NCBI GenBank assembly: GCA_035717985.1
Contig: DASTHW010000006.1
Coordinates: forward strand, 1 to 48,847
DNA from: Candidatus Saccharimonadales bacterium
Lineage (GTDB): Bacteria > Patescibacteriota > Saccharimonadia > Saccharimonadales > UBA10212
DNA: 48,847 nucleotides
Direction of reading: 5' to 3'
The stretch's first letter is position 1, and every line of letters starts with the position of its first letter. The translations under genes were made by a program, and so were the position numbers. The notes beneath the pieces were generated by a model. The model was not told the DNA's origin. It worked only from the letters and a program-made list of their open reading frames with translations, and made no database searches. Below, one piece after another: positions 1 to 44,000 of this stretch.

Positions 1-2226
1 ACCGTCTTCAGCTGGTAGGCTTAGGCTGTAGCTAGTAGAGGTAGGATTTAGGGGGACTAGGGAGATAAAGCCAGTACTGCCGCCATAGGCAAAGCTTAGC
101 TTACCATTGAGACCACCGGCCCCAGCCGTACCGAGTAGGACCTGCTCCTCCCCCGTGCTGGTATCCACCGCCAGGACGCCGGTATTGGAACTATTCTGAA
201 CCTGGAAAGCGCTAGAGTTATCAACTTTAACAGTAACAGCGCCGTTAAGGCTAGAGGTGCCGGAAGTCACCGTAAAATTACTGCCGGAACCAATGGTTGT
301 CGAGCCGTTTAAGCCGATTCCCCCAGAACCAGCATTGATAGTAGTTGTATTAGTACCGCTGGCTTTACCGATAGTTATGTTATTAGCATTGGTTGTACCG
401 ATGTTTAAGTTTTGTCCGGAAGAGACATCAATGCTGGCCGTACTGGCTGAGCCAAAGGTTAGAGTATTACTGTTGAAGGTATTGGTGTTATAGGTACCGG
501 TGGCGGTGATGGAGCCGCCTACAGCTACACCGCTGGTAGTTACTTCTAAATATTTAGTTGAACCGTTAACTGAATTCTCTTCCACGCTTAGTAAATCGCC
601 CCCGACAGGAGTAACTGCGTCCTGAATAACTAGTCCGCCAGCGCCAGGAGAGTTATCTAATGTTATTTGTGGAGAAGTAACGGAGGCGTCATAGACCGCT
701 TGAAAAGTCGGTGTTAAACCGCCGGACGAAGGTGAAGTGCAGGTACCGCCGGTAACGATGCCGCCGGAAACGGTTTGGCTAACGACTATCTGACCAGCAT
801 TACAAGTAAGCCCTGCGCCACTTGTACCATTGGTAGCAAAGCCGCTGGTAGCGTCCACTAAACCGCTAACCTGCAGGGTGGCTCCACTGTTTGAGGGGCT
901 AAGGCCAATACCAACTTTGCCATTAAGGGTATCAGCTACAAACAGCCCGCTACCGGTAGCGTTTTGAATTTGAAAGGCGGTCGCCGAGTTGGTGGAACTC
1001 CTGAGTGCGGCCGAGCCGCTAGCAGTTACATAAAAGGCCTGGTTATGTACAGCATAGCCCTGATTGGATTCGGTACCGCTAGCTGAAGCTGTGATCTGTG
1101 TATCACTATTAACACTACTGACGGTGTACTTATCGCCATTAGCGAATATAAATTCCATACCAGCGGCTACACTACTGGTCCAGCTGGTACCAACGCCGGT
1201 TATCGTCGAGCCGCTCATGGAGGCTGTACCAGCGTTATATATAGCCGGCGAGACGCTGAAAGTATTACTAGGCGAGCCAGTGCCAACACCAACCCGGCTA
1301 TTGACGGTGTCCACATCCAGAACAAAATTATTGTTCGAATCGGCTACGCTAAGAGCGCCCGTGGAGTTAACCGTCGTTTTTAAAGTAACCTTACCGTTGG
1401 CACCAAACGCCGCTACCGGCACCCCGTTGCCGTCTTGCAATTGAAATATGTCAGCAATAGCTCCGCTGGCCGCCTGTATAATGCCGCCGATATCACTAGC
1501 GCCTGCTGATTGAATATGAAAATTGGCCGGCGTCTGGAGCGATGTACCGTTCAGAATAAAACTGCCGCCGCCGCCCCCAGAAGTTAGGAAGCCACAATTA
1601 TTGCTATTCTCTAGACAAACAGTTCCGCCCTCATCCGGCAGTAATATGTCTCTGTTGGCGGTCATGGTGCTGAAGTTTAGCGTGCCGGTAAATGAGCCGA
1701 TGGTTCTCGACAAAGACGCCGATCGAAAGGCATATGGAACACTGGTCAACTGGATTCTAGGGCTCATTTCTCCATCCCAACCGGGCGTGCCGGTACCGCC
1801 GATATTCATGGTTAGCCATAACTGCTGGTCCCAGGGCATAGTCGAGGGAAAAGCCGTTATGCTACCAAGGTTGGCTGTCAAATAGCCGTCGACAACCCGG
1901 ACTTTATTGGCTCCGGTATAAGTCTCAACCCATTGACAATGGCTATCGCCAGTACAGCTTCCCTGACTAGATCCACTAGAGCTGGAGGCGTCATAAATTT
2001 TGAACTCTACGTTGTAGTAGCCGTCCGGCACCACTGCACCAGCGGCATTCAAGAGCCGAGCCTGGAAGTTTAAAACGTCGCTGGTTGAAGCTTGAGCTTT
2101 AGGCGCTAGGCTCCCCCACATGACCAAAAGTACACCAACTAGACCCAGCAGGGGGCCCAAACGTGAGAAGTTATTTCTCACGCGCGTGCGCGCGTGCGCG
2201 CGGCGGCGCAGGAAAATATCCGGCAT
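1..2226 (-). CDS. Giant secreted/membrane-anchored fibre-like surface protein, N-terminal part only (3' end beyond left edge; missing from the ORF track)
   Basis: Hand translation from ATG at 2226: MPDIFLRRRAHARTRVRNNFSRLGPLLGLVGVLLVMWGSLAPKAQA-STSDVLNFQARLLNAAGAVVPDGYYNVEFKIYD...WDGEMSPRIQLTSVPYAF..., with no stop found to position 1 (742 codons). Basic N-region, hydrophobic helix, AQA signal peptidase I site, three 'NSxxAFQxQN' shaft repeats. Confidence 0.9.
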   Translation of the reverse strand, partial: MPDIFLRRRAHARTRVRNNFSRLGPLLGLVGVLLVMWGSLAPKAQASTSDVLNFQARLLNAAGAVVPDGYYNVEFKIYDASSSSGSSQGSCTGDSHCQWVETYTGANKVRVVDGYLTANLGSITAFPSTMPWDQQLWLTMNIGGTGTPGWDGEMSPRIQLTSVPYAFRSASLSRTIGSFTGTLNFSTMTANRDILLPDEGGTVCLENSNNCGFLTSGGGGGSFILNGTSLQTPANFHIQSAGASDIGGIIQAASGAIADIFQLQDGNGVPVAAFGANGKVTLKTTVNSTGALSVADSNNNFVLDVDTVNSRVGVGTGSPSNTFSVSPAIYNAGTASMSGSTITGVGTSWTSSVAAGMEFIFANGDKYTVSSVNSDTQITASASGTESNQGYAVHNQAFYVTASGSAALRSSTNSATAFQIQNATGSGLFVADTLNGKVGIGLSPSNSGATLQVSGLVDATSGFATNGTSGAGLTCNAGQIVVSQTVSGGIVTGGTCTSPSSGGLTPTFQAVYDASVTSPQITLDNSPGAGGLVIQDAVTPVGGDLLSVEENSVNGSTKYLEVTTSGVAVGGSITATGTYNTNTFNSNTLTFGSASTASIDVSSGQNLNIGTTNANNITIGKASGTNTTTINAGSGGIGLNGSTTIGSGSNFTVTSGTSSLNGAVTVKVDNSSAFQVQNSSNTGVLAVDTSTGEEQVLLGTAGAGGLNGKLSFAYGGSTGFISLVPLNPTSTSYSLSLPAEDG
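2181..2202. repeat. 8-bp tandem repeat (CGCGCGTG)x2.75, alternating purine-pyrimidine tract inside the 5' end of the giant CDS
   Basis: Sequence cgcgcgtg cgcgcgtg cgcgcg at 2181-2202, adjoining the inverted repeat cgtgagaa-N5-ttctcacg at 2162-2182. Confidence 0.9.
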
Positions 2227-29100: not shown

Positions 29101-32100
29101 CGGTTGGCAAAGAGCTCGTGGTACCCCACGCCCCTAGAGTTCCGTCGCTATTAAGCTTGGCATAATATGAAGTTAAAAATGCGGAACCATTAAAGCCACC
29201 TATTACGTACACGTAGCCGTTGTTTGAAGTTGAGTATGCATACCCCCTGCTCCCCGGAAGTGAACTGGTAGTTCGCCATACCCCAGTGGAACCGTCAGCA
29301 TTGAGCTTAGAGTAGTAAACGGTAGCTACGTAACTAGACCCATTAATGCCGCCTATTACATACAAATACCCATTGGCGGTTATCGAAGAGGCGGCCGATA
29401 TCCCAGTAGGCAGAGTATTTGGGCTAGTTTGCCAGGCGCCGGTGGAGCCGTCAGCATTAAGCTTGGCATAATATATGTTAGCGCTACCTGGACTACATGA
29501 TGGAGTGCACCCTCCTATAGCATAGATGTACCCGTTTGCTACTACTGTGGTCTGACTAGTCAAGATCGAAGGAAGATTATTAGAGCTCATTATCCATTGG
29601 CCAAGTTGACCACTGGTATTGCCATCTAGGGTAATTATTGAATTGCTCGAATCAACTTTAATTAAGCTACCGCCGCTGGCATTTTGCACCTGGAAGGCAG
29701 TTGTATTATCCGTAGCCGGCTTGAAGAGTGTCTGGCTAGAGTAGGCTGTAAAATTACCAGTTGTATTAACGGTTGGCGAACTACCGGAGCCCACCAGTCC
29801 AGTGTCGTTAAAGTAGCCCCCGTAAGCTGTGCCGATTAAGCCCGTGGTACTAGGAGTACCGGCGCTTGCTGTTCTATATACTTTGTAGGCCACTGCTCCG
29901 CTAACAGCTGGCCAAGTTAATTGGTTATAGTTATTGGTATCTAGGGTAGCATTGCCGGTAGAGGTAGAACCTATAGCTGAAGCTGTCGCCTCGCCCCCGC
30001 TGGCGCTGATGGCCGTAACGCTATATGAGTAGTTAGTAGAACCTGCTGTGCCTTGCTGAGTAATAGTAGGCGCACCCGGACTGCTAAGAGAATTAATACT
30101 TACTCCGCCCAAGAGAGCCCCGGCTAATGATGTAGTACCTTGGACAAAAAGATTACCGCTGGTAGCCAGACTGCCTGATATTTGAGCACTTTGTCCTACT
30201 TGCAGTCCGCCAGAGATAGAGGCGCCACCGGCAAAGCTTGCATTGCTAACTACATTAAGAGTACCGATTTCCGCCCCGCCAGCTTCCAGCTGTTGGGAAT
30301 AGGTGCCGCCAAGATCAAAGACTTGGAGCTTGTTGGAAGCTTCATTATCAATATAAGCATAGCGGCCGTTTATCGTAGCTTTGATGGGTTGATTTAGAGT
30401 AGCCACCCCACCGCCTGATACATCGACCGGGGTTGAGGGGTTGGATATGTCAAAGACCTGGAGCTTGCCTGGCATCGTAAAGCCCACCACATAGGCATAC
30501 TGGCCTTGGACGCTAATGCCATTGGGGTTTGATACTGTAGCTACTCCGCCGGCAGTCACATCAACTGGTAAAGCAGGATTAGATATATCAAAAACTTGGA
30601 GCATACCCGGTGATGAGCTAATCAAATATGCGTAGCGACCAATAACATATACATCGGCAGGAGAGGTATCTGTGGCTACGCCACCGCCTGATACATCGAC
30701 CGGGACTGAGGGGTTGGATATGTCAAAGACCTGGAGCTTATTATCAAAGGTTGCTGGTAGGTAAAGATACCTGCCTGAAATAAACATTCTTTCGGGACCG
30801 CTAGCAGTATTAACTACAGATACAGCGGTAGGATGAGATGGGTTAGATACATCAAAGACTTGGAGTTGATTATTACCAAAAATATCCACATAGGCATAAT
30901 GGCCGGATACTATTACGCTTACCGGGTGACCCCGTAAAGAGACCCCCCCAGCGGTTATGTCTATAGGGGCTGAGGGGTTGGATATGTCAAAGACCTGGAG
31001 TGTACTATTAGTGCTATAAGTAACAACGTATGCGTAATGGCTCTGCACATAAACATCAAAGGGTCCACTATTTGTAGCTACCCCACCGCCTGATACATCG
31101 ACCGGGGTTGAGGGGTTGGATATGTCAAAGACCTGGAGCTTGTTAGAGAGTTGGCTCACTACATATGCATAATGTCCCTGAATAGCTATTTCCATAGGGT
31201 CGCCGCCAGTGGTCACACCCCCTCCCGAGACATTTTTGGGGAGGCTACCGCCTACAAAAAGCTGGCCAGTGGCTGTACCTAGACCTCCAATATTAACTCT
31301 TTGATCTGTAGTATCTACCGCTAAGACATTAGCGCCCCCGGCACTCTGAACCTGGAAGGCGGTTGTGGAATCAGAGTCGTTCTTAAATAAAGCGGCGCCG
31401 GAGTTGGCCACCGAGGCCACTACGTTGCCCGTATCCCCATTAACTAGCTGTAGTAAAGAAGCGCTTTGTCCGGAGGCGCCGCGGATTAAAGCCACTATGT
31501 CGTTGGGGTTGGCGCTTTGGATAGCGTAGTTGGCTGTCTGCAGAGTTGTGCCGTTTTGAATATAGTCACCAGAGCCGGAGGCCGTAGTACATCCGGTAGA
31601 ATTACACACTAGATTTCCGCCTACATATAGACCGGTTGTGCTGTTGATGTCCCCACCCACGTCTAATGTATAGCTGGCCGTAGGCTGGGCAATGGCTATA
31701 CGGGCATTTACGGTGTCAGCTTCAAACAGGTGGCTAGTGCCATTGGCATTTTGAATCTGGAAAGCAGTGGTTGAGTCCGTTGCACTCTGAAAAGTGTTAG
31801 AGCCGGTAAAGATTTGGTTGGCGTTAAGCTTGGCGATATTGCTGGAGTCAGATAGCTGGCTCGATGAATAAGTGCAGTTACCGCTGGCGTCGCAAACCTG
31901 GCTACCGTTCTGAAAGATAGTTGAACTATTTATGGAGGCAAAACTGTTACTGCCAGTAAAGTTATTGTTTTTATTCAAAAAGGCTACGGCGGCCGGTAGA
32001 CGGTTAACGTCCAGCACGCCGCTAGATAGGTTTCCGGCATTGGTATAAAATCCGCCACTCTGGCCGTTTAGCGCCACAGCGTTAACATTGATTAAAGAAG

Positions 32101-32893
32101 AGCCGTTACCGGCAAATTTGTTTTGCAGATTGTTGAATTGATTAGCGCCGCTAAAGGTTTGATTACCCGTAAGCGAGGCAGAGCCCGTACCAGCTTTGGC
32201 TATACAGCCGGAGGTATCACAGATCAGTACTGAGTTAATTTTAAGCCCGCTATTACTGAGCGAGGACGTACCACCGTCAGCTAATAGCTGGCCGGTAGAA
32301 GAGATATCTCCACCTACCTGGAGGACGGCACCATTTGCCTGTGGCGCGGTGCCCACTCCTATTTTTTGATTAGCCGTATCGGCTACCAGCAATTGCTTGC
32401 CGCTAGCGTTTTGAATCATAAAAGCGTTCTGCGAATCGGCTTCGTTTTGGATGGCCACCTGGCCAGTAGCGGTCAGGCTTTTACCGCCAGTGATAGTAGT
32501 GTCTCGGTTTAAGTTTATTTTGCTAATTGACGGCGAGGTGCTCATGATGTTTTGAGCTATCAAGTCCTGAGATTTGGCTACCTGGTTATTCTGGGCATTT
32601 TGGTGATTAGTAGTAACCATTAGCCAGCCGAAGGCTATAGCCAACAAGCCTATAAGCGCGCCGGCCGATATCCAAAAATTCCTGGTTTTAAAAATGATAG
32701 CCGGCGGCGCCTGCGGCGCCTGGATAACAATGGTTTTGGGTGACTGGCCGGAGCTTAAATTCTCCTCGGTGCTGGCAGAGATTTGGCTAGCTGGAGCTGT
32801 TTTTTGGCTAGCCTCATAAAACCCGTAAGCCGGCCTAGACTCCGCCGCCTGGCTGATAGGATTTTTAAAGTCGATTTTGCCTTTATCGTCCAT
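26177..32893 (-). CDS. Giant membrane-anchored multidomain surface protein (~2238 aa): shaft repeats, 7-blade LVIVD propeller, Fn3-like domain, 6-blade Kelch-like propeller, right-handed beta-helix
   Basis: ATG at 32893 with AAGGAGG SD at 7 nt; TM helix FWISAGALIGLLAIAFGWLMV; 7 'YAY...LQVFDISNP' repeats; 6 'NGYxYxxG' repeats; NosD-like 'NNTITGNTVQGN'; 7 'DSTTAFQVQN' shaft units. Confidence 0.92.
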   Translation of the reverse strand: MDDKGKIDFKNPISQAAESRPAYGFYEASQKTAPASQISASTEENLSSGQSPKTIVIQAPQAPPAIIFKTRNFWISAGALIGLLAIAFGWLMVTTNHQNAQNNQVAKSQDLIAQNIMSTSPSISKINLNRDTTITGGKSLTATGQVAIQNEADSQNAFMIQNASGKQLLVADTANQKIGVGTAPQANGAVLQVGGDISSTGQLLADGGTSSLSNSGLKINSVLICDTSGCIAKAGTGSASLTGNQTFSGANQFNNLQNKFAGNGSSLINVNAVALNGQSGGFYTNAGNLSSGVLDVNRLPAAVAFLNKNNNFTGSNSFASINSSTIFQNGSQVCDASGNCTYSSSQLSDSSNIAKLNANQIFTGSNTFQSATDSTTAFQIQNANGTSHLFEADTVNARIAIAQPTASYTLDVGGDINSTTGLYVGGNLVCNSTGCTTASGSGDYIQNGTTLQTANYAIQSANPNDIVALIRGASGQSASLLQLVNGDTGNVVASVANSGAALFKNDSDSTTAFQVQSAGGANVLAVDTTDQRVNIGGLGTATGQLFVGGSLPKNVSGGGVTTGGDPMEIAIQGHYAYVVSQLSNKLQVFDISNPSTPVDVSGGGVATNSGPFDVYVQSHYAYVVTYSTNSTLQVFDISNPSAPIDITAGGVSLRGHPVSVIVSGHYAYVDIFGNNQLQVFDVSNPSHPTAVSVVNTASGPERMFISGRYLYLPATFDNKLQVFDISNPSVPVDVSGGGVATDTSPADVYVIGRYAYLISSSPGMLQVFDISNPALPVDVTAGGVATVSNPNGISVQGQYAYVVGFTMPGKLQVFDISNPSTPVDVSGGGVATLNQPIKATINGRYAYIDNEASNKLQVFDLGGTYSQQLEAGGAEIGTLNVVSNASFAGGASISGGLQVGQSAQISGSLATSGNLFVQGTTSLAGALLGGVSINSLSSPGAPTITQQGTAGSTNYSYSVTAISASGGEATASAIGSTSTGNATLDTNNYNQLTWPAVSGAVAYKVYRTASAGTPSTTGLIGTAYGGYFNDTGLVGSGSSPTVNTTGNFTAYSSQTLFKPATDNTTAFQVQNASGGSLIKVDSSNSIITLDGNTSGQLGQWIMSSNNLPSILTSQTTVVANGYIYAIGGCTPSCSPGSANIYYAKLNADGSTGAWQTSPNTLPTGISAASSITANGYLYVIGGINGSSYVATVYYSKLNADGSTGVWRTTSSLPGSRGYAYSTSNNGYVYVIGGFNGSAFLTSYYAKLNSDGTLGAWGTTSSLPTARYWGYTATANGYIYVIGSSAPDSTVYYAKFNSDGSLSGWTTSTNPLPVGMQGTAVVTSNGYIYILGSGTVQTIYYAKLDADGSTGAWQTNINNAPITSASDTATLANGYVYILGGAGNKVYYASTSRVQVGANLDLVGLQGGTTADAGGIGQGSTGGSITAGNITAVGGFQVQGQANFAQGVGIGGNLSVAGDTAIQTTTNSTTSFQVQNSGGFSLFTVDTTDTEVNIGHLGSLGLSTTVNIANNNGAAQTVYIGGTGATGGSSSPSTYINIQAGNTNMQLVNSGLTLKTFNNSSKILQVQNSGGSNLLAIDATGNGNITIGNATNPSTITFTGGVTVSRPATPTKGTLFYDTSTNQLVQYNGSKWQAPSKSNTFIVAASNSTQAEKDAADAVASGSADQTTINSFFTSTPCTTTGCSVYLMEGTYTISGSINVPDNTTLSGAGTSTIITIPNAQNGTYSMITNSDTTTGTNVTIQNLLVDGNKANQTAGSMTGIYFNKVGSGSGSSARSGGKIANTQVRNLYGSSGYGIELFSSSNNIISGSTIESDAGPGIYIYNTSSNNTITGNTVQGNGTEGVFIYLANNNNVSANTVQGNSLEGIYMNNSAGNTVTGNTSQGNYNGVRVSGASSTNNTISGNTISNSTNYGINISASSNIISSNKIYDSGGVAANNGIYIWAGVNQNSIVDNDITDSSCTTTCYAINVAAGTNNYLASNHFVGDGTNSASISDTGTNTIYSGQQLTQNGDTSFRNAVDSASAFQVQNAAGTSLLTVDTSGMTITINGALNVAGNLTISSGSLITSSTSMYGTSLPASPVNGQEYYFVADATNGIVWHLRYNSTSGYWEYLGGDDLLSVNDTASTITSTTYADPANNVSITLPLAGDYDITLNATVQNPGGSNSQDIVAIECGSSATQDSDGIQAYSTPSGIIQITGTTSKRCTGALINDIVKVQTRYANVSGGQVSYLRLRVHPIRVH
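30405..31142. repeat. Identical 63-bp direct repeats in LVIVD blades (30405-30467 and 31080-31142)
   Basis: accccaccgcctgatacatcgaccggggttgaggggttggatatgtcaaagacctggagcttg at both sites; further partial copies near 30685 and 30975. Confidence 0.9.
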
Positions 32894-33101
32894 GGCGGGC
32901 CCTCCTTGATGAGAGGTGTTGTGTGCCATAGCTAACCGCACCGCTGGTCCAGTCAGAAGAGTCTAAATCAATACCGGCCAGGTAAGATTCCCTGGCCCGC
33001 TGAAACCGCTTTCGGCACCGCGGCGAACAAGTTTTGGCGTCTTTTCGTGCTGTAAAAACACGCTGACAGCCCAGGCAGATTTTAGCCTTACTACGGGACA
33101 T
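32883..33101 (-). CDS. Small zinc-finger-like protein (72 aa)
   Basis: ICLGCQRVFTARKDAKTCSPRCRKRFQR (CxxC...CxxxC, basic); A-rich region before the ATG; stop overlaps the giant gene start by 11 nt. Confidence 0.65.
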   Translation of the reverse strand: MSRSKAKICLGCQRVFTARKDAKTCSPRCRKRFQRARESYLAGIDLDSSDWTSGAVSYGTQHLSSRRARHGR

Positions 33102-33334: not shown

Positions 33335-33532
33335 TTAGGCAGTTTTCTTGGTGCGCCGAGAGATACGGCCGCCAACGGCGCCAGCTTTGCGGGCTAGGTC
33401 GCGGTTAGCGTAAAAACCACCGGTGTGGCCCATCTTGCCGCCCATCTGGCCAATCTTGGCGTAAAAATCTTTACCGTACTTGCTCTTGTTGGTGGCGGCG
33501 GCTTTCTGGCCGCCATTTTTTGTTCCAGCCAT
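33335..33532 (-). CDS. KGG-repeat general stress / LEA-like small protein (65 aa)
   Basis: MAGTKNGGQKAAATNKSKYGKDFYAKIGQMGGKMG..GGF..NRDLARKAGAVGG; AAGGAG SD 7 nt before the ATG at 33532 (the ORF-track start at 33637 is too far upstream). Confidence 0.88.
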   Translation of the reverse strand: MAGTKNGGQKAAATNKSKYGKDFYAKIGQMGGKMGHTGGFYANRDLARKAGAVGGRISRRTKKTA

Positions 33533-33639
33533 GTTAATTCTCCTTATCAGCCACCAAAGATATTTCGGTAGGCTATTTAATGATATTTCCACCCCTTGCC
33601 TGCCTAACTTTGCAAAAGTTTTGGCGGGTGATGGCAAAC

Positions 33640-33745: not shown

Positions 33746-36700
33746 CTAAAGCGTTACATTGCCTTGGATTTTTACGTTTCCTTGGATGTGGGTCTCTGTA
33801 GGCGCAGTTACAAAAGACTGGATGGCAGAGGCGTAGCTCCACCTGTTACTTCCCCCTGGATCTATAGCATAGGCACGCCACCAATATGTGGCATTAGAGT
33901 TTAGATAAGGTGCTTGGTAGCTATGTGTAGCTAGCTGAGATGAATTTACATTAGGATTACCGCTGTAAGCCGTGCCACTTAGGGCGTTCTGACCGCCCCA
34001 GCCAGCCTGGGAGGCCGTACAAGTCCCGGGTACACCTGTGCCGCCGTTATACTGGCAGATACTACGAACTATCGTATTGCACGAACTATCAGCACAAACA
34101 TCTATCCAGTACTCTAGATAGTCAGAATCATATTCGGCTGAGCGTAGCTGGAAAGTTGTATAAACACTATTGCCGCTACTACTGCTGACGGGGTACAAAA
34201 GTGTAGGCGGTGCCGGCGGCGTATCGCCTGTAGTAAAGGTGCTGATGGTGGAGGCGGGGCTCCAGGTATCTGTGCCACCGGGGTCTATGGCGTAGGCCTC
34301 CCACCAATATTGTGTATTCTTGGTTAGAGGTGGCAGTTGGAAATTATAAGTGGCCATTGTGGATGAGGTAATTACACTACTACCGGCATAGGCCGTGCCG
34401 CCCTGCTGGTCTTGGCCGCTCCAGCCGGTTTGAGATGATGCTTGATCCACGGTACGTATAACAGAGTTGCAGGCGCTATCGCTACAAATATTTATCTTGT
34501 ACTGTAAATAGTCACTATCAGCATCAGTAGTTCTTAACTGCAAAGAGGGCATATCAGACACTCCGGTAGACCCGCTGGTTGGAGAGAATAAGATTGGCGC
34601 CGCCGGCGTGGTGTTATACGTAACTGTGAAGTCAGTTATTTGGCTTTGAGTACCGCAGGTAGCATCATCCATCTTGAACTGGACCCATAAGTATCTGCCG
34701 GCCTGATTAATGTTATAGGTGGTGGCAGGCAGGCCGTAGGGTATGGTATTAACAGAGCTAAAGTTACCAGAGGCATCGCCTACTCTATAGTTTATCTGCA
34801 TACCGCAGACAGCTTGGCCGCTGAAGGAGAGATTTGTAATCTTGTAAGCGCCACCAATATCGACAGTTTTTTCATATATGGCGGACTGATCTGGAGAATT
34901 AATAGAAATAAATTGAACGCCACTGCAAGGATCGGCCAGACCCGTACAGTCATTGGCAGAGGAGCCACCTTCACCGCCTACGATATAGAGGTAGCCATTA
35001 TAGGAAGCTAGAGCAAACCCATATCGAGGCTGGGTAAAGCCGGATACGAAAGTTGTGCCATCATTTGTGGAATTATGAGTATAGTTCCAGGTGCCAATGG
35101 TGCCGTTTGAATTAATTTGGGCGAACTGGACACCATTACAGTAAATTCCAGTAGATGTGCAGTCATCGCTTGAAGTATATGCGGCACCTCCCATGATATA
35201 TAGGTATCCATTATAGGAGATGGCGGCTAGCCCATATCGGGGCTGGGTGAAGCCGGCCACAAAAGTACTGCCATTATTGGCCGAGTTACTGGTATAGTTC
35301 CAGGTGCCGATAGTGCCGTTTGAATTAATTTGGGCGAACTGGACACCGTTGCAGAAGTCATTGCCACCCGTAGTGCAGTCATTAGCCGGAGCACCGCTCC
35401 TGCCGCCTATAATATAGAGATAGTTATTGTAGGTAGCGACGGCTAGGTCATACCGGTTAGATGCGAAGCCCGCCACAAAGCTTGTACCGTCGTTTGTAGA
35501 GTTATGAGTGAAATTCCAAGCGCCTATAGTGCCATCGGGATTAATCTTGGCAAATTGGACATCATCGCACCCACCACCGTTACAGTAGGTACTTGAGCCT
35601 CCCAAGCCACCTATAATATATAGGTAGCCGTTGTAGGCGGCGGTGGCAAGAGAATACCTAGGAAGAATAAAGCCAGCCACAAAGGTACTGCCATTATTGG
35701 CCGAGTTACTGGTATAGTTCCAGGTACCGATAGTGCCGTCTGAGTTTATTTTGGCAAATTGGACGCCGTTGCAGATGCCGCTAGGGATTGCCGTACAGTC
35801 ATTGCCGGAACCCTCATTAGACATATATCCTCCGATCACATATAGATAGCCACCGTAGGCGACAGAGGCAAAATCAGCCCTAGGTTCTGTAAAGCCGTCC
35901 ACAAAGGTCGTGCCGTCGTTAGTGGAGTTGTGGGTATAGCTCCAGGCTCCAACAGTGCCATCGGAGTTTATTTTGGCAAATTGGACGCCATTACATATAC
36001 GATAAACATTGTCAGAACTTGTAGTACAATCATCGCCCGATGTGTCATATATTTCACCACCCAGTACGTACAAGTAGCCATTGTACGCCACTGAAGCTTG
36101 ACCATAGCGGGGCCGGGTAAACCCACCCGAGAAAGTACTGCCGTCATTGGTAGAATTATGTGTATAGTTCCAGGTGCCGTCGGTACCGAAGGAGGGAGTA
36201 GTGCCGGCATATATAGAGGTATACTGAACCCCATTACAGGAATATGGAACACCACCGAGGTTATCAGTGGTGCAATCTTGGCCACTGATGGTGTAATCTC
36301 CACCTATGACATATATATAACCGTTATGTATGACTGCGTCAGCAAATTCACGTCGGGTTATCAGGCCCGCATTAAAACTACTGCCGTCATCCGTACCGTT
36401 ATGCGTATAATGCCAGGCCCCGACAGTACCATTGTTATTTAGCTTAGCGAATTCGACACCACTGCAGTATGTAACGCAGTCGTTACCCGTATTGCTCCTA
36501 CCGCCAACAATATATATGTAGCCATTGTATGCCACTGCCGTGAAAGAAAAACGAGGCTGAATAAAACCAGCGGAAAAAGTTGTGCCGTCACTGACTGAAC
36601 TGTGGGTATAATTCCAATCACTTACTGTACCGTCGGCGTTAATCTTCGCGAATTGGACGCCACTGCAAATGCTTGACGGACATTCGGAATTAACTGAAGC

Positions 36701-39700
36701 ATAGCCGCCTAAGACATAGAGGTAGCCCTTATACGCTACTGATGCGAGATCTTGGCGAGCGGCAGTGAACCCAGCCACGAATGCTGTGCCGTCGTTGGTG
36801 GAGTTATGGGTGTAGTTCCAGGTGCCAATGGTCCCATCACTGTTTATCTTGGCGAACTGGACGCCAGAGCACATGCCAAATGTACAGTCATTGGCACTAG
36901 TGTTAGACGAATAACCGCCCATGACATAAAGGTAGCCATTATATGTTGCCGCACCAAACCACTCCCGAGCCTTGATAAAACCGGCCACGAAGGTCGTACC
37001 GTCATCTGTAGAGTTATGAGTGTAGTTCCAGGTGCCAATGGTTCCATCACTGTTTATCTTGGCGAACTGGACGCCGTTGCAGTATTGGGAATCCGTACAG
37101 TCGTTGGTCCCATCACCAGAACCGCCAAGAATATATAAGTAGCCATTGTAGGCCAGTGCGGAGTGGCCAGAGCGGGGGCTTATAAAACCGGCCACGAAGG
37201 TCGTACCGTCATCTGTAGAGTTATGAGTGTAATGCCAGGTGCCAATGGTTCCATCACTATTTATCTTGGCGAACTGGACGCCAGAGCAAAAACCGTTACA
37301 GTCATCACTACTAATACTAGAGTCCCCTCCAATAACGTAGAGATAGCCATTATATACGACTGAAGACTTATGTTTACGGGGGTGGATAAAGCCGTTCGAA
37401 AATGTTGTCCCGTTATTGGTTGAGTTGCTGGTGTAGTTCCAAGCACCAACCGGGCCGGCGGTGGCGCGCAATGTAGTTAGTGAAGCGAACTGGACGCCAT
37501 TGCAGAAATAACTACTAAACCCGTCATAGGTAGTACAATCATAAGAATTTGTAACACCGCTCCCTCCTAGAATGTAAATATAGCCATTATAGACAATCGA
37601 GGTGTGTTCACTCCTAGCAGTAAAAAACCCACTACTACATGGTGCGACCCAGGTAGCGCATGAGCTACCTCCTGCCGTGTAATTCCATGCACCGATTGTA
37701 CCGTTAGCGTTGATGGGGGCATACTGGACGCCATTGCAGTAAGATGGGTTAGCACCAGATGTACAATCGCTGGCACTAACCCAGGTATTACCACCGATGA
37801 TGTATAGATAACCGTTGTAGGCAACAGAGGTATGGCTTTCTCTGGCGGTATTAAAACTACTACTACATGGTGCGACCCAGGTAGCGCATGAGCTACCTCC
37901 TGCCGTGTAATTCCATGCACCGATTGTACCGTTAGCGTTGATGGGGGCATACTGGACGCCATTGCACAAAAAAACAGTCGAGGTGGTACAGTCATTGGCG
38001 CTGGCATTACTGGCACCACCGGATATATATAAGTAACCGTTATAGGCTACTGATTCATGAAACCACCGCGCCTGGGTGAATCCGGCCACAAAGGTAGTGC
38101 CGTCATCTGTCCCGTTATGGGTGTAGTGCCAGGCGCCAACGGTGCCGTTAGCGTTGATGGGGGCATACTGGACGCCATTGCAGTAATTGTTATTAGCAGA
38201 TGCGCAGTCATTCCCTGCCGTAGCACCAGAGCTCCCGCCGATAACATACAAATAGCCATTGTAGGCTACTGTTGTATGACCTCTTCGTGGTTGGATAAAC
38301 CCAGCTACGAAAGTAGTACCGTCATCGGTGGAATTGTGGGTATAGTGCCAGGCGCCAACGGTGCCATTAGCGTTGATGGGGGCATACTGGACACCATTGC
38401 AGAGGCTACTACAATCGTTACCATTTGTCCCTGGATAGCCTCCTAATATATAGAGGTACCCATTATAGGCAACTGAGGTTTGTTGGGTGCGGGCCTGGAT
38501 AAAACCAGCTACGAAAGTGGTGCCGTCATCGGTGGAATTGTGGGTATAGTGCCAGGCGCCAACGGTGCCATTAGCGTTGATGGGGGCATACTGGACGCCG
38601 CTACAGTAACCGCTATCAGTCGACACGCAATCGTTACTAGTGCCGCCAGTACCATCACTGCCACCTATGATGTATAGGTATCCATTGTAGGCAACTACCG
38701 AACTGTTGCTTCTTGCAGTCATGAAACCGGATGAGAAAGTAGTGCCATTGTTGGTGGAATTGCTGGTGTAGTTCCAGGCACCTACCGTCCCGGTACCAAT
38801 ACCTGCCCGGTCGATCTCATCCGCAGTGGAATAGTCTATATTGCCGTCGTCGTAGCCGGTAGCGAAGTCTGCTGTAGTTGTCACCACTACAGTAGGGTCT
38901 ATGGTTAGCGGGTAGTTTTTATTTTTAAGACCAGCGGCAGTCAGAGTTAAGATATCGCCGCTTAAGCTAAACTTTACTCCGCTAGTAGAGAGTTTGCCCT
39001 TAGCGTCCTTTATATACGGAGCTGGGATGATGAATTCTAGGTTGTCTTTTTTGGCGTTTTGGCGGGCCTTTGTTATCAACGCCTGGCTTTTGGCATCGCC
39101 AATCTGCAAGTTTGAACTAAATAAAGTTGGGTCCGGCGAGTAAATTCCTACCCCGCCGTCGGCCATCATTTTGGCCGTAAGCTGGCTACCCAGCTCCAGC
39201 TTCCAGCGAAAAGTAAAACTATCAACAGGGGCTTTGGGTAGTAAAATATCTTCCTTTATGCCGTTACGCTTTAGCGTTAAAACTTGGTGCGTGCCGTGTG
39301 CGCCAGCAAAAATAGTCTGCCCACTACCAGTGTATTTGCCTGAAGATAGACCATCTAGCGGCACCATATTAAAACTAAAATCACTTTGCCCATCGCCAAA
39401 AGTTACACCGGCTGAGGCTTTTTTGTTAATGATAGCTTTATACGGCATTTTGCCGGTAGAGTCAGCCGGCCCGGAGACATTTAGCTGGCGATCGCCTGGT
39501 GCATTGACCTGGTCTTGGGCATTATAGCTAATGGCGGCCTTGGTAAGTTTTACGTATTTAAGGTCGACCGAGCTTTTACTTAACAGCGATTTTTCTTTAG
39601 CCGTTAAATCATACCGGTGGCCGGCCTGGTAAAAAAAGTTGGCGGCTAGGCCGGCGATAACTATTACAGAAAATGCTACCGCCGTTTGCCATTTATATTT

Positions 39701-39772
39701 CTTTAGCCAAGACAGTTTAGCTAGCTTAGTTAATTTTTCTGTTGGTATTTGCTTAAATAATTTTCTCATCAT
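33746..39772 (-). CDS. Giant membrane-anchored protein (2008 aa): Rhs/WapA-like N-terminal domain, 18 Cys-containing Kelch-like blades, two Fn3-like domains
   Basis: TM WQTAVAFSVIVIAGLAANFFY; GIKEDILL...YPLTIDPT; 18 x 'R....SVAYNGYLYxxGG...DC(x3-11)CNGVQFAxIN'; 2 x 'YWWxAYAIDPGG'; ATGA overlap with the upstream gene. Confidence 0.93.
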   Translation of the reverse strand: MMRKLFKQIPTEKLTKLAKLSWLKKYKWQTAVAFSVIVIAGLAANFFYQAGHRYDLTAKEKSLLSKSSVDLKYVKLTKAAISYNAQDQVNAPGDRQLNVSGPADSTGKMPYKAIINKKASAGVTFGDGQSDFSFNMVPLDGLSSGKYTGSGQTIFAGAHGTHQVLTLKRNGIKEDILLPKAPVDSFTFRWKLELGSQLTAKMMADGGVGIYSPDPTLFSSNLQIGDAKSQALITKARQNAKKDNLEFIIPAPYIKDAKGKLSTSGVKFSLSGDILTLTAAGLKNKNYPLTIDPTVVVTTTADFATGYDDGNIDYSTADEIDRAGIGTGTVGAWNYTSNSTNNGTTFSSGFMTARSNSSVVAYNGYLYIIGGSDGTGGTSNDCVSTDSGYCSGVQYAPINANGTVGAWHYTHNSTDDGTTFVAGFIQARTQQTSVAYNGYLYILGGYPGTNGNDCSSLCNGVQYAPINANGTVGAWHYTHNSTDDGTTFVAGFIQPRRGHTTVAYNGYLYVIGGSSGATAGNDCASANNNYCNGVQYAPINANGTVGAWHYTHNGTDDGTTFVAGFTQARWFHESVAYNGYLYISGGASNASANDCTTSTVFLCNGVQYAPINANGTIGAWNYTAGGSSCATWVAPCSSSFNTARESHTSVAYNGYLYIIGGNTWVSASDCTSGANPSYCNGVQYAPINANGTIGAWNYTAGGSSCATWVAPCSSGFFTARSEHTSIVYNGYIYILGGSGVTNSYDCTTYDGFSSYFCNGVQFASLTTLRATAGPVGAWNYTSNSTNNGTTFSNGFIHPRKHKSSVVYNGYLYVIGGDSSISSDDCNGFCSGVQFAKINSDGTIGTWHYTHNSTDDGTTFVAGFISPRSGHSALAYNGYLYILGGSGDGTNDCTDSQYCNGVQFAKINSDGTIGTWNYTHNSTDDGTTFVAGFIKAREWFGAATYNGYLYVMGGYSSNTSANDCTFGMCSGVQFAKINSDGTIGTWNYTHNSTNDGTAFVAGFTAARQDLASVAYKGYLYVLGGYASVNSECPSSICSGVQFAKINADGTVSDWNYTHSSVSDGTTFSAGFIQPRFSFTAVAYNGYIYIVGGRSNTGNDCVTYCSGVEFAKLNNNGTVGAWHYTHNGTDDGSSFNAGLITRREFADAVIHNGYIYVIGGDYTISGQDCTTDNLGGVPYSCNGVQYTSIYAGTTPSFGTDGTWNYTHNSTNDGSTFSGGFTRPRYGQASVAYNGYLYVLGGEIYDTSGDDCTTSSDNVYRICNGVQFAKINSDGTVGAWSYTHNSTNDGTTFVDGFTEPRADFASVAYGGYLYVIGGYMSNEGSGNDCTAIPSGICNGVQFAKINSDGTIGTWNYTSNSANNGSTFVAGFILPRYSLATAAYNGYLYIIGGLGGSSTYCNGGGCDDVQFAKINPDGTIGAWNFTHNSTNDGTSFVAGFASNRYDLAVATYNNYLYIIGGRSGAPANDCTTGGNDFCNGVQFAQINSNGTIGTWNYTSNSANNGSTFVAGFTQPRYGLAAISYNGYLYIMGGAAYTSSDDCTSTGIYCNGVQFAQINSNGTIGTWNYTHNSTNDGTTFVSGFTQPRYGFALASYNGYLYIVGGEGGSSANDCTGLADPCSGVQFISINSPDQSAIYEKTVDIGGAYKITNLSFSGQAVCGMQINYRVGDASGNFSSVNTIPYGLPATTYNINQAGRYLWVQFKMDDATCGTQSQITDFTVTYNTTPAAPILFSPTSGSTGVSDMPSLQLRTTDADSDYLQYKINICSDSACNSVIRTVDQASSQTGWSGQDQQGGTAYAGSSVITSSTMATYNFQLPPLTKNTQYWWEAYAIDPGGTDTWSPASTISTFTTGDTPPAPPTLLYPVSSSSGNSVYTTFQLRSAEYDSDYLEYWIDVCADSSCNTIVRSICQYNGGTGVPGTCTASQAGWGGQNALSGTAYSGNPNVNSSQLATHSYQAPYLNSNATYWWRAYAIDPGGSNRWSYASAIQSFVTAPTETHIQGNVKIQGNVTL
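37631..37966. repeat. Identical 108-bp direct repeats (37631-37738 and 37859-37966)
   Basis: actactacatggtgcgacccagg...ggacgccattgca at both sites, 228 bp (76 codons) apart. Confidence 0.92.
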
Positions 39773-41067
39773 TGTGCCCAGAAGTATGATTGCTTAACTC
39801 CGCCGGTAAACCATTCCCCGCCCCGCATGACCTGGTCTGTTGTAGGCCCGGGCGGAACGATAGTCGCAGAACCCGATATTGCTACCACAGTGGCCGGCGT
39901 TACACTGCCCACTGAAGCTAAAACATCTGTAGCCGGATCGGTAATTTGGAACTTAAGTGTGCTACCGCTGATAGCGCCAGAGCCAACATCTATCTTGGCG
40001 TAAAAACAATACTGCGAGGTGCTGACACTAAGAGAGCCAGTAACCGTAGCATCACCGCTAGCATTAAAACTGCCTGGAGTTGAATTAAACTGCGTGGTAC
40101 CGGAAGTTGGGAAGGTCGCCTCGCAAGTAGCCTCCTGCTTGTAGTACAAAGTGAGGTTGGCCAGATTGGTTTGGGCGTTAACGGTGCCGCTGTTATGAAC
40201 TTTTATGCTGGTGATGTTGGCCGAACCCACATCGCGCACAAAGGTAAACGCACCGCCCACATAATTGCCGGTTGTGCCAATGGTTAAGCTAGCTACGTGG
40301 GTGCCAAACGTGCCGGCAGTTATAGCTGGGGAGGCTAATATCTCAATTACAATGCTGGCATAGTTAGCGCTGGCACTAAAACCGGTAACATTTGTAGATG
40401 GCCAGTTGGTGCCGGTAGGACCATTGGTGTCGTTAGCCGCCGCTACGGGTGTAGCCGGCGACGTGGCCCTGCTAACCATGCCGGTAGGCGCCGTGGCCAT
40501 ACGAGTATCGGCCGTGTTTCTGACGGCTACTCCGGCAAACCAAGATGAGCCATCAGTAGCTGTTAAACTATCTGCGGCATAGGTGACAGAAGTAGCACTA
40601 CCGGTAGAGGTAATACTGCTACCCACCGGCGAGGCCGCCTGGCCGCGAAAGACTTGCATAACAACATTGGTCGCGCCCGTCCACGTGCCGCTGGTAGAAC
40701 TGGCACTGGCGGCCGTGCTCCAGCCAGCCGTTATAGCGTTCCTGTTACTGCCTGGGCCGCTACTGGTACTAGCCGTGTTTATACTCGTGAAACCACTGGC
40801 CGTAGTGGGGACTGTGCTACTGCCGGTGATAGAGGCACTAACGAGTAGCAGATCACCAGCTTGCTCGCCACTACAGGCCGCTGTGCTGGTGCTGGCCGCC
40901 GAGCTGGCGCAGACAAAGCTTAAAGCCGAGGCGTCTGCCTTGGGGGCAAACAAGGTGCCTGGGCCAAAAAGTACTACAGCAATCAACAGTATGGTTATCA
41001 TGCTTAGGCTGGTAATTTTTTGGGGCCAGCCTGATTCTTTTTGCTTTTTAAAGTAATGATTTGCCAT
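39769..41067 (-). CDS. Secreted Ser/Thr/Ala-rich surface protein (432 aa)
   Basis: Signal-like ITILLIAVVLFGPGTLFAPKADA, two beta-rich domains, C-terminal PTTDQVMRGGEWFTGGVKQSYFWAQ; 7 nt from the upstream giant stop. Confidence 0.88.
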   Translation of the reverse strand: MANHYFKKQKESGWPQKITSLSMITILLIAVVLFGPGTLFAPKADASALSFVCASSAASTSTAACSGEQAGDLLLVSASITGSSTVPTTASGFTSINTASTSSGPGSNRNAITAGWSTAASASSTSGTWTGATNVVMQVFRGQAASPVGSSITSTGSATSVTYAADSLTATDGSSWFAGVAVRNTADTRMATAPTGMVSRATSPATPVAAANDTNGPTGTNWPSTNVTGFSASANYASIVIEILASPAITAGTFGTHVASLTIGTTGNYVGGAFTFVRDVGSANITSIKVHNSGTVNAQTNLANLTLYYKQEATCEATFPTSGTTQFNSTPGSFNASGDATVTGSLSVSTSQYCFYAKIDVGSGAISGSTLKFQITDPATDVLASVGSVTPATVVAISGSATIVPPGPTTDQVMRGGEWFTGGVKQSYFWAQ

Positions 41068-41074
41068 AGTCAGT

Positions 41075-44000
41075 TTACTTCCTGTTGTATATGATGTTTA
41101 TCTCACCCGCCCTGGCATAATCACCGCTTGCCGCGACTTTCAGGCTCACATCTAACACAATCGTGTCTCCAGCGTTTACCGTACAGCTACCAAAGCCGGG
41201 GTTGGCGGTTCCCCAAGTCGCCGTCGTGCTGACCGTTCCGGCGGTACCGCAGGCAGTACTACCCTTGTAAATCGTAATCTTAGCCAGATCTGATGTAGTG
41301 CTGGTCCAGCCGTTGAATGTAATGCTGTTAAAGCTACTGAAGTCGGTCGGTGCCCGCCACTGGACAAAAATGTCATAGTCATTAGTGCCGGCGATGCTCT
41401 CGGTCCAAGAATAGTAACTATGCTGGTCGCTGGCACCACAGGGGTTGGGACTTGGGATAATATTTAGCAGACTGGAGCCCGAGCAAAAGTCGCTGGTCAT
41501 ACTGCCCGTATGGGTATTGCCGGTGTTGTTGTTTGGGGTCATGACGGCATTCACGTATTCGGGTGCCAGCGTTACCGTAGCCGTACTACTGCCGCCGCCG
41601 CAAGCACCCCATGTTAATACACCGGGCGTACCAGTATTCATTAGGCATTGGTTCGCACTGCCAGAGCTACCCGGTAGTGTTATAGCATATTGCGTGGTTC
41701 CGCCGGCCGCCTGAATAGATACATTGTTGGCACCGTTCCAAAATGCTAGCTTGCCGGAATTATCAACACTTAGAACTGTGCTACTGGCCGATTGGGCATT
41801 TATAAGATATCCGGTAGCCGCACTGTCGCTCTGATTCAGTAATAGAACGTTAGCTGTATTTGCTAGGCCTGTGGGCGAGAGGTCTTGGACTCTCATTACG
41901 CTACCCTGCAGTGTACTACCTGCCCCGGCACTTACCGTGCGCGAGAAATCGAAGTCATTGGTGGTATAGCTAATTGTACTGGCGGTAGTAAAGTTTTTAC
42001 TGCCCACAAGTTGGTCTGTTTGGCCGGACAAGGCTACTGTTACCGTACCTGTGCCACTACCCACTTGGGTAGTTCCGCTTGATGCCGCAAAGATAGCCGT
42101 CCCGCCGCTATAACTTATAGAGGCATAGTTAGTACCTGTACCGTCGTAAACCTTCAATGCAGGCTGAGCACCAGAGGTATCTAGCGCCAGCTCTTTGGCA
42201 TTGCTACCATTTTGAATCAAGAAAGCTGAAGCGGAGCTACCAGCTGTTTGCAAATAATACCCATTTAAGCCTAAATTGCCATTAACATCCACGCCACCGC
42301 CTACACTTAATCCTCCGGCGACGGAGGCGTCACCAGCAGTTTGCATATTTGAATCAACTGCAAGAGTTCCAAATTCAGCCCCACCGGCTTCTAATTGCTG
42401 TGTGTATGTACCGCCGAGGTCGAAGACATACAAACCATTAGCGTCTGCTGAGGCGTATGCATATCTGCCTTCGACAGAGACGTCAACAATACCGGGTGCA
42501 CTACCACTGGCAGTAACAAAAACTGGTGAGTAAGGATTACTTATGTCGACTACCGTTAGAGTGTCATTGCCGATACTAGCTATGTATGCATAGCGGCCCT
42601 GGATCGTAATTCCATCCGAACCAGAAAGTCCAGTAGTTAAAGTTGTAACCAAAGACGGGCTGGATGGCGTTGAGACATCTATTACGTATAGTGCTCCACT
42701 TTGGCTAGTAACATATGCATAGTGACCTTTAACATATACGCCGAAAGGATTTGATAAACCTGTTGATATAGAACCCGCCAGAGAGAGGCTGTTTGGGTTC
42801 GATATATCTATTATGGACAGTGTATGTGGTGATCCGCTGGTAACATAAGCATAATTACCTGCAACATAGATATTCCCGGGGAACGATGCCATGCTAAGCG
42901 ATCCAAGAGCCACTGGGCTTGATGGGTTAGAGATGTTATAGACTTCTATGGCCGGACTACCCGCAACGGTGATATAGGCATACTGCCCGCGTATATAGAT
43001 GTCCTGTGGCGCCGAACCGATAGACACTGAGCCTAAATATGATGGAGAAGTTGGAACGCTTATATTGTAAATGGCTAAGGTGCCGCTACCATTATTAACT
43101 ATGTAAGCATACTGGCCTTGGACATATACTTGATAAGGACTATTAATCCCAGTAGTGGATGTGGCGACTACTATAGGCGCAATAGGATTTGATATATCTG
43201 TAACGTAGAATTTATTACCAGTATTGTCTATGGAATATAAGTAACGACCTACAACAAATGAGCTCACTACATACGACCCTTTAAGCATGGAACCGACGAG
43301 CTTTGGCTGTGTTCCACTGACATACACCTGCCCAGTAGGAGTACCTAGACCGCCAACTGAAAGTTGGAGAGAAGAATTGGATTTATTGCTACTAGTATAG
43401 GCACTGCTTGAAGTTGGGGGTGTGGCTGTGCCAGCAGTAATCGAACCATTATCAGTGAATGAGGAACTAAGAACTGTGGTCAAATAGACCTCGCTACCAG
43501 CTACGCCGTTAGCGGCTGAACGATAGATTCTATAACCACTAGCTCCCGTTACAGCCGTCCAGGAAATACCAATGGTCTGATTACCAGACGTAAGGGTGGT
43601 GGTGTTCTCATCAAAAGTAGAAGTTTCGCCACCAGCAGAATCTATAGCCGTTACTTCATAGTAGTACTTAGCTAGTGCCGTCAGTGAGCCACCGGCTGAT
43701 TGAGTTAAAGTTAGAGTTCCCGGGGAACTCATCTGGTTATATATCACGTCAACACTTATGCGCATGTTGCTTGTATCACCCGTGAGTAGCGTCGCGCCGG
43801 AGGAGTTCTGTAACGTAAAGCCACTGGTAGAATTAGTTTTTGTTATAAATTGAGACTGCCCTAAGACCTTCAGCTGGGGAGGGCTAGACAAGCTACCAAC
43901 TAAATTTATGCCCGTATCATTGAATGTGGTGCCACTAGTATTACCGACCCAGCCCGTAGAACTCGGATTGCCACCAGTGGCATAGGTGCGGTAGATATTA

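Follow-up and report, generated by a model that had tools for sequence, protein, structure and literature searches.

The closest described relatives of the protein analyzed here are the Kelch domains of the BTB-Kelch and KLHDC adaptors (LZTR1, 9mez; KLHL12; KLHL20; Keap1) and the designed SAKe6 scaffolds. They consist of six four-stranded blades with a GG pair, a Trp in strand D and an Arg ahead of strand A. When the four strands of a blade run antiparallel, one face of the propeller receives the B-C and D-A connections and the opposite face those between A and B and between C and D; the ligand face of these domains is made of protruding B-C loops, D-A loops and the entry residues of strand A. 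In KLHL20, for example, the substrate-binding face is shaped by protruding B-C loops together with D-A loops (PMC6720452). We investigated contig 6 of the genome of a Candidatus Saccharimonadales bacterium (GCA_035717985.1, contig DASTHW010000006.1; 48,847 nucleotides, referred to as the window). A single open reading frame (ORF) of 2008 aa on the minus strand (33746-39772), in the following called the Kelch gene, uses the same elements in a bacterial setting with a predicted membrane anchor. The source genome (835 kb, 96% complete) contains the gene as a single copy, and among 40 relatives it is the only one of its genus. We consider it moderately probable that the Kelch protein is a membrane-anchored surface protein of Saccharibacteria with fast-evolving composite binding faces and a role in ligand recognition or adhesion.

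To define the repeat, the protein was split at the motif W[NHS][YF]T, the resulting units were aligned using MAFFT and the entropy of each column was calculated. Splitting yielded exactly 18 units of 67-82 aa, which start between residues 333 and 1562; the last unit ends at about residue 1636, so that the repeat spans the window from ~38776 down to ~34865. Extra-long units are present after blade 6 (LTTLRATAGP) and after blade 12 (YAGTTPSFGTDGT), and the repeat stops after blade 18. The first-pass annotation of this DNA, which had counted 18 blades with linker breaks after blades 6, 12 and 18, was correct in this respect. The consensus of the units is W.YThNStndGTtFvaGF..pR....vaYNGYLYi.GG......nDC(3-11 aa)CnGVQfA.IN..GTiG, and the Kelch motif residues W.YT...GF..pR....vaYNGYLYi.GG are found in all 18 blades. 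Both Cys columns are also filled in all 18. The loops enclosed by the Cys pair comprise 7, 3, 7, 7, 8, 10, 3, 5, 4, 4, 3, 11, 10, 7, 4, 7, 6 and 6 residues in blades 1 to 18, and no two of them are identical. Column entropy peaks at the four positions after the Arg (R+1..4), at the five positions after the Gly pair (GG+1..5) and in the interior of the Cys loop, while the scaffold is near-constant. The annotation had described the Cys pair around 3-11 residues, the varied post-Arg residues and the near-constant scaffold in the same way, and all of its examples could be recovered, both for the loops (SSL, TTYDGFSSYF, TTDNLGGVPYS, TAIPSGI) and for the residues after the Arg (RSNS, RTQQ, RWFH, REWF, RFSF, RYGQ, RADF).

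All 48 Cys residues of the protein occur in close pairs: 36 in the B-C loops, four in extra C-x7-C pairs of blades 5 and 6, and eight in the C-terminal domains; the N-terminal domain contains none. Cys accounts for 0.8% of the residues in the housekeeping ORFs of the window, and the pattern of Cys pairs is far beyond chance. In blades 5 and 6 (residues 620-715; 37631-37966, minus strand) the usual HNSTDDGTTFVAGF stretch of the D-A loop is exchanged for AGGSSCATWVAPCSS. The exchange brings in the additional pair C-ATWVAP-C, where the structural models place a short helix. As this variant is also found in P0002 and P0003, two close homologues, but in different blades (NGNSCSTFVSPCNGG), it appears to be a mobile blade subtype.

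The assignment to the Kelch fold is supported by profile, model and structure comparison. Pfam scored Kelch_1 (PF01344) with 175.9 bits at a cut-off of 20.1, Kelch_6 with 159.2, PF24681 with 85.9 and Kelch_2 with 64.9 bits. Two AlphaFold2 (AF2) models were used, each from an alignment of about 60 homologues, and strands were taken from DSSP strings mapped on the sequence. The first model (residues 318-1205; mean predicted local distance difference test score, pLDDT, 83.7) contains twelve four-stranded blades, and its pLDDT drops below 50 in the LRATAGP linker that follows blade 6; the second (residues 1195-2008; mean pLDDT 84.3) contains six further blades and three beta-sandwich domains. Four strands, A to D, are predicted in each of the 18 units. 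A Foldseek comparison of both models with the PDB returned the six-bladed Kelch domains of LZTR1, SAKe6 designs, KLHL12, Keap1 and KLHDC2/3 as top matches, with TM scores normalised to the target (TMt) of 0.75-0.81 across 350-430 aligned columns, and the same proteins were the top matches of a PDB sequence search (E 4e-14 or weaker). The homologues P0004 with 12 and P0002 with 18 blades are consistent with units of six. An arrangement in three closed six-bladed Kelch propellers with breaks after blades 6 and 12, as put forward in the annotation, is thus well supported by the models and by fold matches with TM scores of about 0.8. Propeller 1 comprises blades 1-6 (residues ~328-767; 37472..38791), propeller 2, preceded by the LRATAGP linker, blades 7-12 (residues ~775-1188; 36206..37450), and propeller 3, preceded by AGTTPSFGTDGT, blades 13-18 (residues ~1197-1625; 34898..36184), all on the minus strand.

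The fold itself is therefore a known one, and the differences to the described adaptors and to SAKe6 concern its embellishment and its setting. Sequence identity to them is just 14-20%. The blades of the Kelch protein comprise ~70 aa compared with ~47 aa, and they carry a conserved D-A loop of ~18 residues and, in the B-C loop, an insertion flanked by the Cys pair. Furthermore, three propellers are arranged in tandem in a bacterial protein that is predicted to be extracytoplasmic and membrane-anchored. BTB and BACK domains, through which the BTB-Kelch ubiquitin-ligase adaptors bind Cul3, gave no Pfam match in the Kelch protein; its N-terminus consists of a putative membrane anchor and a domain without a Pfam family.

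According to DSSP, strand D corresponds to W.YT, strand A starts directly after the Arg, strand B corresponds to YLYiiGG and strand C to GVQYAPI. The D-A loop is the conserved stretch of ~18 residues HNSTDDGTTFVAGF..R, and the Cys loop is the B-C loop in 18/18 blades. Because the Cys loop is a B-C loop and the post-Arg residues form the start of strand A, the Cys loops, the post-GG residues and R+1..4 should, by topology, be located on the same face of each propeller. The proposal of the annotation that the variable loops share a ligand-type face is therefore supported by the topology of the modeled propellers and by analogy to KLHL20 (PMC6720452).

A search for homologues of the Kelch protein revealed more than 1454 matches at E<=1e-3, and the nearest relatives are from records named Candidatus Saccharibacteria or Saccharimonadales, in agreement with an ultrasmall bacterium of the Patescibacteria (TM7) as the source. 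No NCBIfam model exists for these homologues. They define a multi-Kelch family of Saccharibacteria with a common order of parts: an N-terminal anchor, a conserved N-domain, a multiple of six blades and a conserved C-terminal beta-sandwich. The Kelch protein displays all four of these features. The closest members, P0002, P0003 and P0004, are 51-59% identical over the full length, with 55% for P0002, and P0003 is encoded at a syntenic locus. The number of propellers differs within the family: P0002 has three and P0004 two, whereas P0003 has twelve regular blades and a few irregular ones. The Kelch protein differs from the family also by its two C-terminal immunoglobulin-like (Ig-like) repeats. 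Among 5.8 billion proteins the closest relative is 55% identical, and with no closer relative synonymous sites between orthologues are expected to be saturated.

Comparison with P0002 demonstrated that the variable positions are not conserved between orthologues. Identity is 18% at R+1..4, 23% in the Cys loops and 29% in the post-GG stretch, compared with 58-70% in the scaffold segments. Blade-by-blade conservation of the loops, which the annotation had named as evidence against its proposal, was not found: loop similarity is 0.21 between equivalent and 0.21 between non-equivalent blades. In contrast, a weak positional signal is left in the scaffold, with a similarity of 0.65 between equivalent and 0.59 between non-equivalent blades (0/5000 permutations). 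The lengths of the loops also differ between equivalent blades. According to these alignments the loops evolve fast, much quicker than the scaffold.

The Cys pair is not a general property of the family. Of the best 120 homologues, 43 lack Cys loops altogether, and 21 carry them in half or more of their blades. Among those blades of the 120 proteins whose B-C loop could be delimited, 836 contain no Cys in this loop, 273 two, nine only one, and three at least three. While the loops of the Kelch protein vary between 3 and 11 residues, some members have a constant 8-residue loop, such as P0005 with its near-constant CKDSGTNQYC, or no Cys at all. Members without Cys vary at the same R+1,2 and GG+1..3 positions. 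The Cys loop is thus a clade-specific feature, and the variability is not linked to the Cys residues.

The constant scaffold could in principle reflect a recent multiplication of blades. DNA identity between blades is 44-75%, and we therefore determined the same-codon fraction, that is how often the codons for identical residues match between blades. For strands A-B this fraction is 0.40-0.43 for blade pairs within or between propellers, close to the value of 0.38 expected from the codon usage of the gene. This result rules out recent blade duplication as the origin of the constant scaffold; it indicates that the blades are ancient and that their protein sequence is kept by purifying selection. 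From strand C to the D-A loop the fraction is 0.45 for blades of different propellers and rises to 0.66 for adjacent blades of one propeller. The excess arises from discrete tracts of 101-108 nt with 91-100% identity, each of which extends from the second loop Cys as far as ...AGF and stops just short of the post-Arg residues. The longest, of 108 nt with 100% identity (37859-37966 versus 37631-37738), begins with CNGVQ... at the second loop Cys, extends to ...APCSS and lies exactly between the variable regions of the blade pairs 4/5 and 5/6. Two tracts of 101 nt with 97% identity cover VQYAPINANGTVGAWHYTHNSTDDGTTFVAGFIQ (38496-38596 versus 38292-38392) and GVQFAKINSDGTIGTW.YTHNSTDDGTTFVAGFI (37182-37282 versus 36975-37075), and a tract of 106 nt with 91% identity is located between blades 14/15 and 16/17 (35670-35775 versus 35250-35355); all are on the minus strand. 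The syntenic orthologue P0003 contains tracts of the same kind, and in P0002 no conversion tract of at least 60 nt was detected. The pattern is that of gene conversion in short tracts, which have the variable regions as their limits and homogenise the scaffold. It could reflect selection that keeps the loops distinct. A mechanical reason would nevertheless suffice for the limits of the tracts, since the C-D-DA stretch of ~105 nt is the sole conserved run that is long enough for homologous recombination; the A-B stretch of 36 nt remained unconverted despite its conserved protein sequence.

An intra-loop disulfide between the paired Cys is plausible. In 17/18 blades of the AF2 models a coil loop has both Cys residues at its base, in a beta-bridge state. 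The predicted extracytoplasmic location of the propellers also speaks for a bond, as does the paired occurrence of Cys among the homologues, with none or two in 1109 B-C loops compared with a single one in nine. The genome encodes a homologue of VKOR (138 bits; contig 13, 129607-130008, minus strand) and a DsbA-like Thioredoxin_4 protein (70.6 bits; contig 5, 16404-16874, minus strand). In a genome of only 835 kb this pair would amount to an extracytoplasmic disulfide-forming pathway of the actinobacterial/cyanobacterial type.

We propose the following picture for the function of the protein. A single N-terminal helix would anchor it in the membrane, and the N-domain, the three six-bladed Kelch propellers, the beta-sandwich and the two Ig-like domains would project outward. 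In each blade the B-C loop would be pinned at its base by the Cys pair, most likely as a disulfide formed by the VKOR/DsbA-type pathway. Six Cys loops, together with R+1..4 and the post-GG residues, would form the top face of one propeller. As the top face is the ligand-binding face in characterized Kelch domains, the protein would present three different composite binding surfaces. These surfaces would change by ordinary substitution, insertion and deletion across evolutionary time, while gene-conversion tracts of ~100 nt would keep the longest conserved stretch of the scaffold alike between neighboring blades. Host or ligand binding would be the likeliest function. The ligand might be located on the envelope of another cell, for example a glycan or a protein of a host bacterium, or in the environment, and the role would be adhesion or recognition. 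Cultivated Saccharibacteria are obligate epibionts on host bacteria and need adhesins (PMC10633639).

Several observations weigh against an adhesion or recognition role. In 6/18 blades the loop comprises only 3-4 residues, too few for more than a small contribution to a binding surface. Overall, the loops are rich in Gly, Ser and Thr (50% in sum; G 16%, S 16%, T 18%) with 15% Tyr and Phe, and they are nearly free of charge: Lys, Arg, Glu, Gln and His together account for 1.1% compared with 24.6% in the housekeeping proteins of the window. Weakly constrained spacers or sites of glycosylation are also compatible with such a composition. Surface loops under relaxed constraint are expected to diverge fast, and fast divergence alone is no proof of a binding role. 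A close orthologue is present in only 3/40 related genomes, and from this patchy distribution the protein would not be essential to the lifestyle in general. A literature search for Kelch or propeller surface proteins of such type in Saccharibacteria had no result.

The same observations can be read in a purely structural sense. Disulfides would then stabilise an extracellular propeller, the enclosed residues would be filler, the propellers would serve as a rigid spacer or coat, and binding would be left to the N- and C-terminal domains, which are the conserved parts of the family. The low complexity of the loops and their structural-looking ends, with a Thr after the first Cys in 34/62 loops and an aromatic residue before the second Cys in 35/62, fit this explanation, and so do the very short loops and those relatives whose loop is near-constant or lacks Cys. 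However, the residues at R+1..4 are chemically diverse (H, Y, F, Q, E, L, W) and differ in every blade at the mouth of the channel, at positions that are the classic ligand contacts in Kelch adaptors. Moreover, the same top-face positions vary throughout the family, including members without Cys, and propellers would be an unusual choice for a mere spacer. We therefore regard a staple without a binding function as possible but rather unlikely.

Two further explanations assign a more active part to selection. In the first one, which we consider unlikely, the Cys-loop clade would have become a display scaffold for host range: conversion would keep the framework uniform, and selection would keep the 18 disulfide-constrained loops and the 18 sets of residues at the channel mouth different within a protein and replace them from lineage to lineage. 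The selective force might be, for example, an arms race with the remodeling of host surfaces or with host sensors for epibionts. If this is true, every propeller would serve in recognition as a surface that can evolve independently of the others.

The second one, somewhat less likely still, is the proposal of the first-pass annotation that the protein represents a constrained-loop binding library analogous to antibodies or variable lymphocyte receptors (VLRs); here diversifying selection would act on the loops, recombination would keep the scaffold uniform, and the driving force would be an arms race over host range. The 18 distinct loops fit this proposal, as do the lack of blade-by-blade loop conservation with P0002, the differences in loop length at equivalent blades, and the tracts of 101-108 nt with 97-100% identity that leave out the variable regions, likewise in P0003. 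On the other hand, the limits of the tracts can be explained mechanically, with the conserved A-B stretch likewise unconverted, P0002 lacks such tracts, and the blades are ancient. The composition of the loops is tightly constrained, and relatives have near-invariant loops or no Cys. With one gene copy per genome there would be no repertoire, donor cassettes were not seen, and the genome lacks a reverse transcriptase as a machinery for diversification. The library was thus not supported, and the comparison with VLRs and other repeat-protein binders would hold only loosely: a repeated constant scaffold, variable residues on one face and recombination acting on repeats are common to both. Here, however, the repeat forms a propeller and not a solenoid, conversion tracts cover the scaffold and not the variable parts, somatic or cassette-based assembly is lacking, and the analogy failed every test of repertoire generation that we applied.

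A related candidate was a variable protein of a diversity-generating retroelement (DGR). DGR targets are common in bacteria of the candidate phyla radiation, and the Kelch protein resembles them in being a predicted surface protein with localised variability in an ultrasmall symbiont. As RVT_1 had no match anywhere in the 96%-complete genome, a DGR could be ruled out; in addition, no template repeat was seen and internal repeats match only the scaffold. The variability extends to all 18 blades and comprises changes in length, which to our knowledge DGRs do not make. Nothing in these data indicates a new mechanism of diversification.

A glycan-bearing coat protein appears very improbable. Up to three N-x-S/T motifs (WNYT, HNST, NGT) are conserved per blade, and Ser and Thr make up 34-40% of the Cys loops and post-GG stretches, which could serve as glycosylation sites; but N, S and T are also typical residues of turns and strand ends in the Kelch repeat, and the Cys pairs and the varied R+1..4 would be left unexplained. 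A Kelch-class enzyme, whether a sialic-acid mutarotase of the NanM/YjhT type or a galactose-oxidase-like protein, is hardly credible: although some homologues were automatically named 'N-acetylneuraminic acid mutarotase' (JGI) and YjhT (2uvk) is among the fold matches (TMt 0.68), better matches are non-enzymatic binding domains, no NCBIfam model matched the protein, top-face residues that differ in every blade and between orthologues make a conserved active site unlikely, and three tandem anchored propellers with extra domains are set apart by architecture from NanM/YjhT, a single soluble periplasmic propeller.

The remaining parts of the protein were assigned as follows, all on the minus strand. 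Residues 1-48 (39629..39772) consist of a Lys/Arg-rich tail, predicted to be cytoplasmic, and a single hydrophobic helix at about residues 30-48 (TAVAFSVIVIAGLAANFFY), as read off the sequence. By the positive-inside rule this segment would be an N-terminal membrane anchor or signal anchor and, consequently, the remainder of the protein extracytoplasmic. The Cys-free N-terminal domain (residues ~51-320; 38813..39622) was recognized by its family-wide conservation, with the consensus ...KEDI.L...LEAR...GIYSADP...YPLSIDPSVVVTSTSDF. C-terminal to the propellers follow the beta-sandwich domain that is conserved across the family, with one Cys pair (residues ~1630-1722; 34607..34885), and two tandem Ig-like beta-sandwich repeats with two and four Cys (residues ~1727-1990; 33803..34594). 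The Ig-like repeats match the Rha78A N-terminal Ig-like family PF25788 (30.3 bits, cut-off 27.4). Pfam, NCBIfam and the PDB contained no sequence match to the N-terminal domain or to the first C-terminal beta-sandwich. A Pfam match to the FLYWCH zinc finger (24.4 versus 23.6 bits; residues 492-533, window ~38174-38299) was rejected because it is located within a Kelch blade, whose W/Y/C spacing most likely produced it by chance; the FLYWCH family is also listed for many homologues.

The Kelch gene is located between two giant surface-protein genes on the same strand, which encode LVIVD repeats and right-handed beta-helix regions, and we count this context as support for a role at the surface. 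The downstream gene (26177-32941) encodes 2254 aa and also contains a Cys-poor Kelch segment at residues ~1118-1347; the upstream gene (41075-48724) encodes 2549 aa, and its C-terminal part is conserved in syntenic loci. Synteny with the locus of P0003 extends over the giant gene, the Kelch gene, a small KGG-like gene, a ROK kinase, rpsA, infB and DUF5663. Directly upstream of the Kelch gene, an ORF of 432 aa (39769-41067, minus strand) encodes an S/T/A-rich protein with an N-terminal hydrophobic helix and without a Pfam family; a tblastn comparison with the syntenic loci L002, L003 and L015 did not reveal a counterpart. Its stop codon overlaps with the ATG of the Kelch gene (ATGA), which suggests that both genes are translationally coupled. 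Just downstream of the Kelch gene, the Gly/Lys-rich KGG-like ORF (100 aa; 33335-33637, minus strand) reaches 79-83% identity with its counterparts in the syntenic loci L003 and L006; a promoter-like site precedes it at 33714-33686.

In the Kelch fold, a B-C loop bracketed by Cys is an uncommon addition. It may be of interest to protein engineers, because its closest solved relatives are the designed SAKe6 Kelch scaffolds. Saccharibacteria are found attached to other bacteria, and the way in which they recognize their hosts is little understood beyond type IV pili. The protein described here is a member of a large and so far unstudied family of surface proteins, and as the putative binding faces are the parts that evolve fastest, its members would be reasonable candidates for host or ligand recognition.

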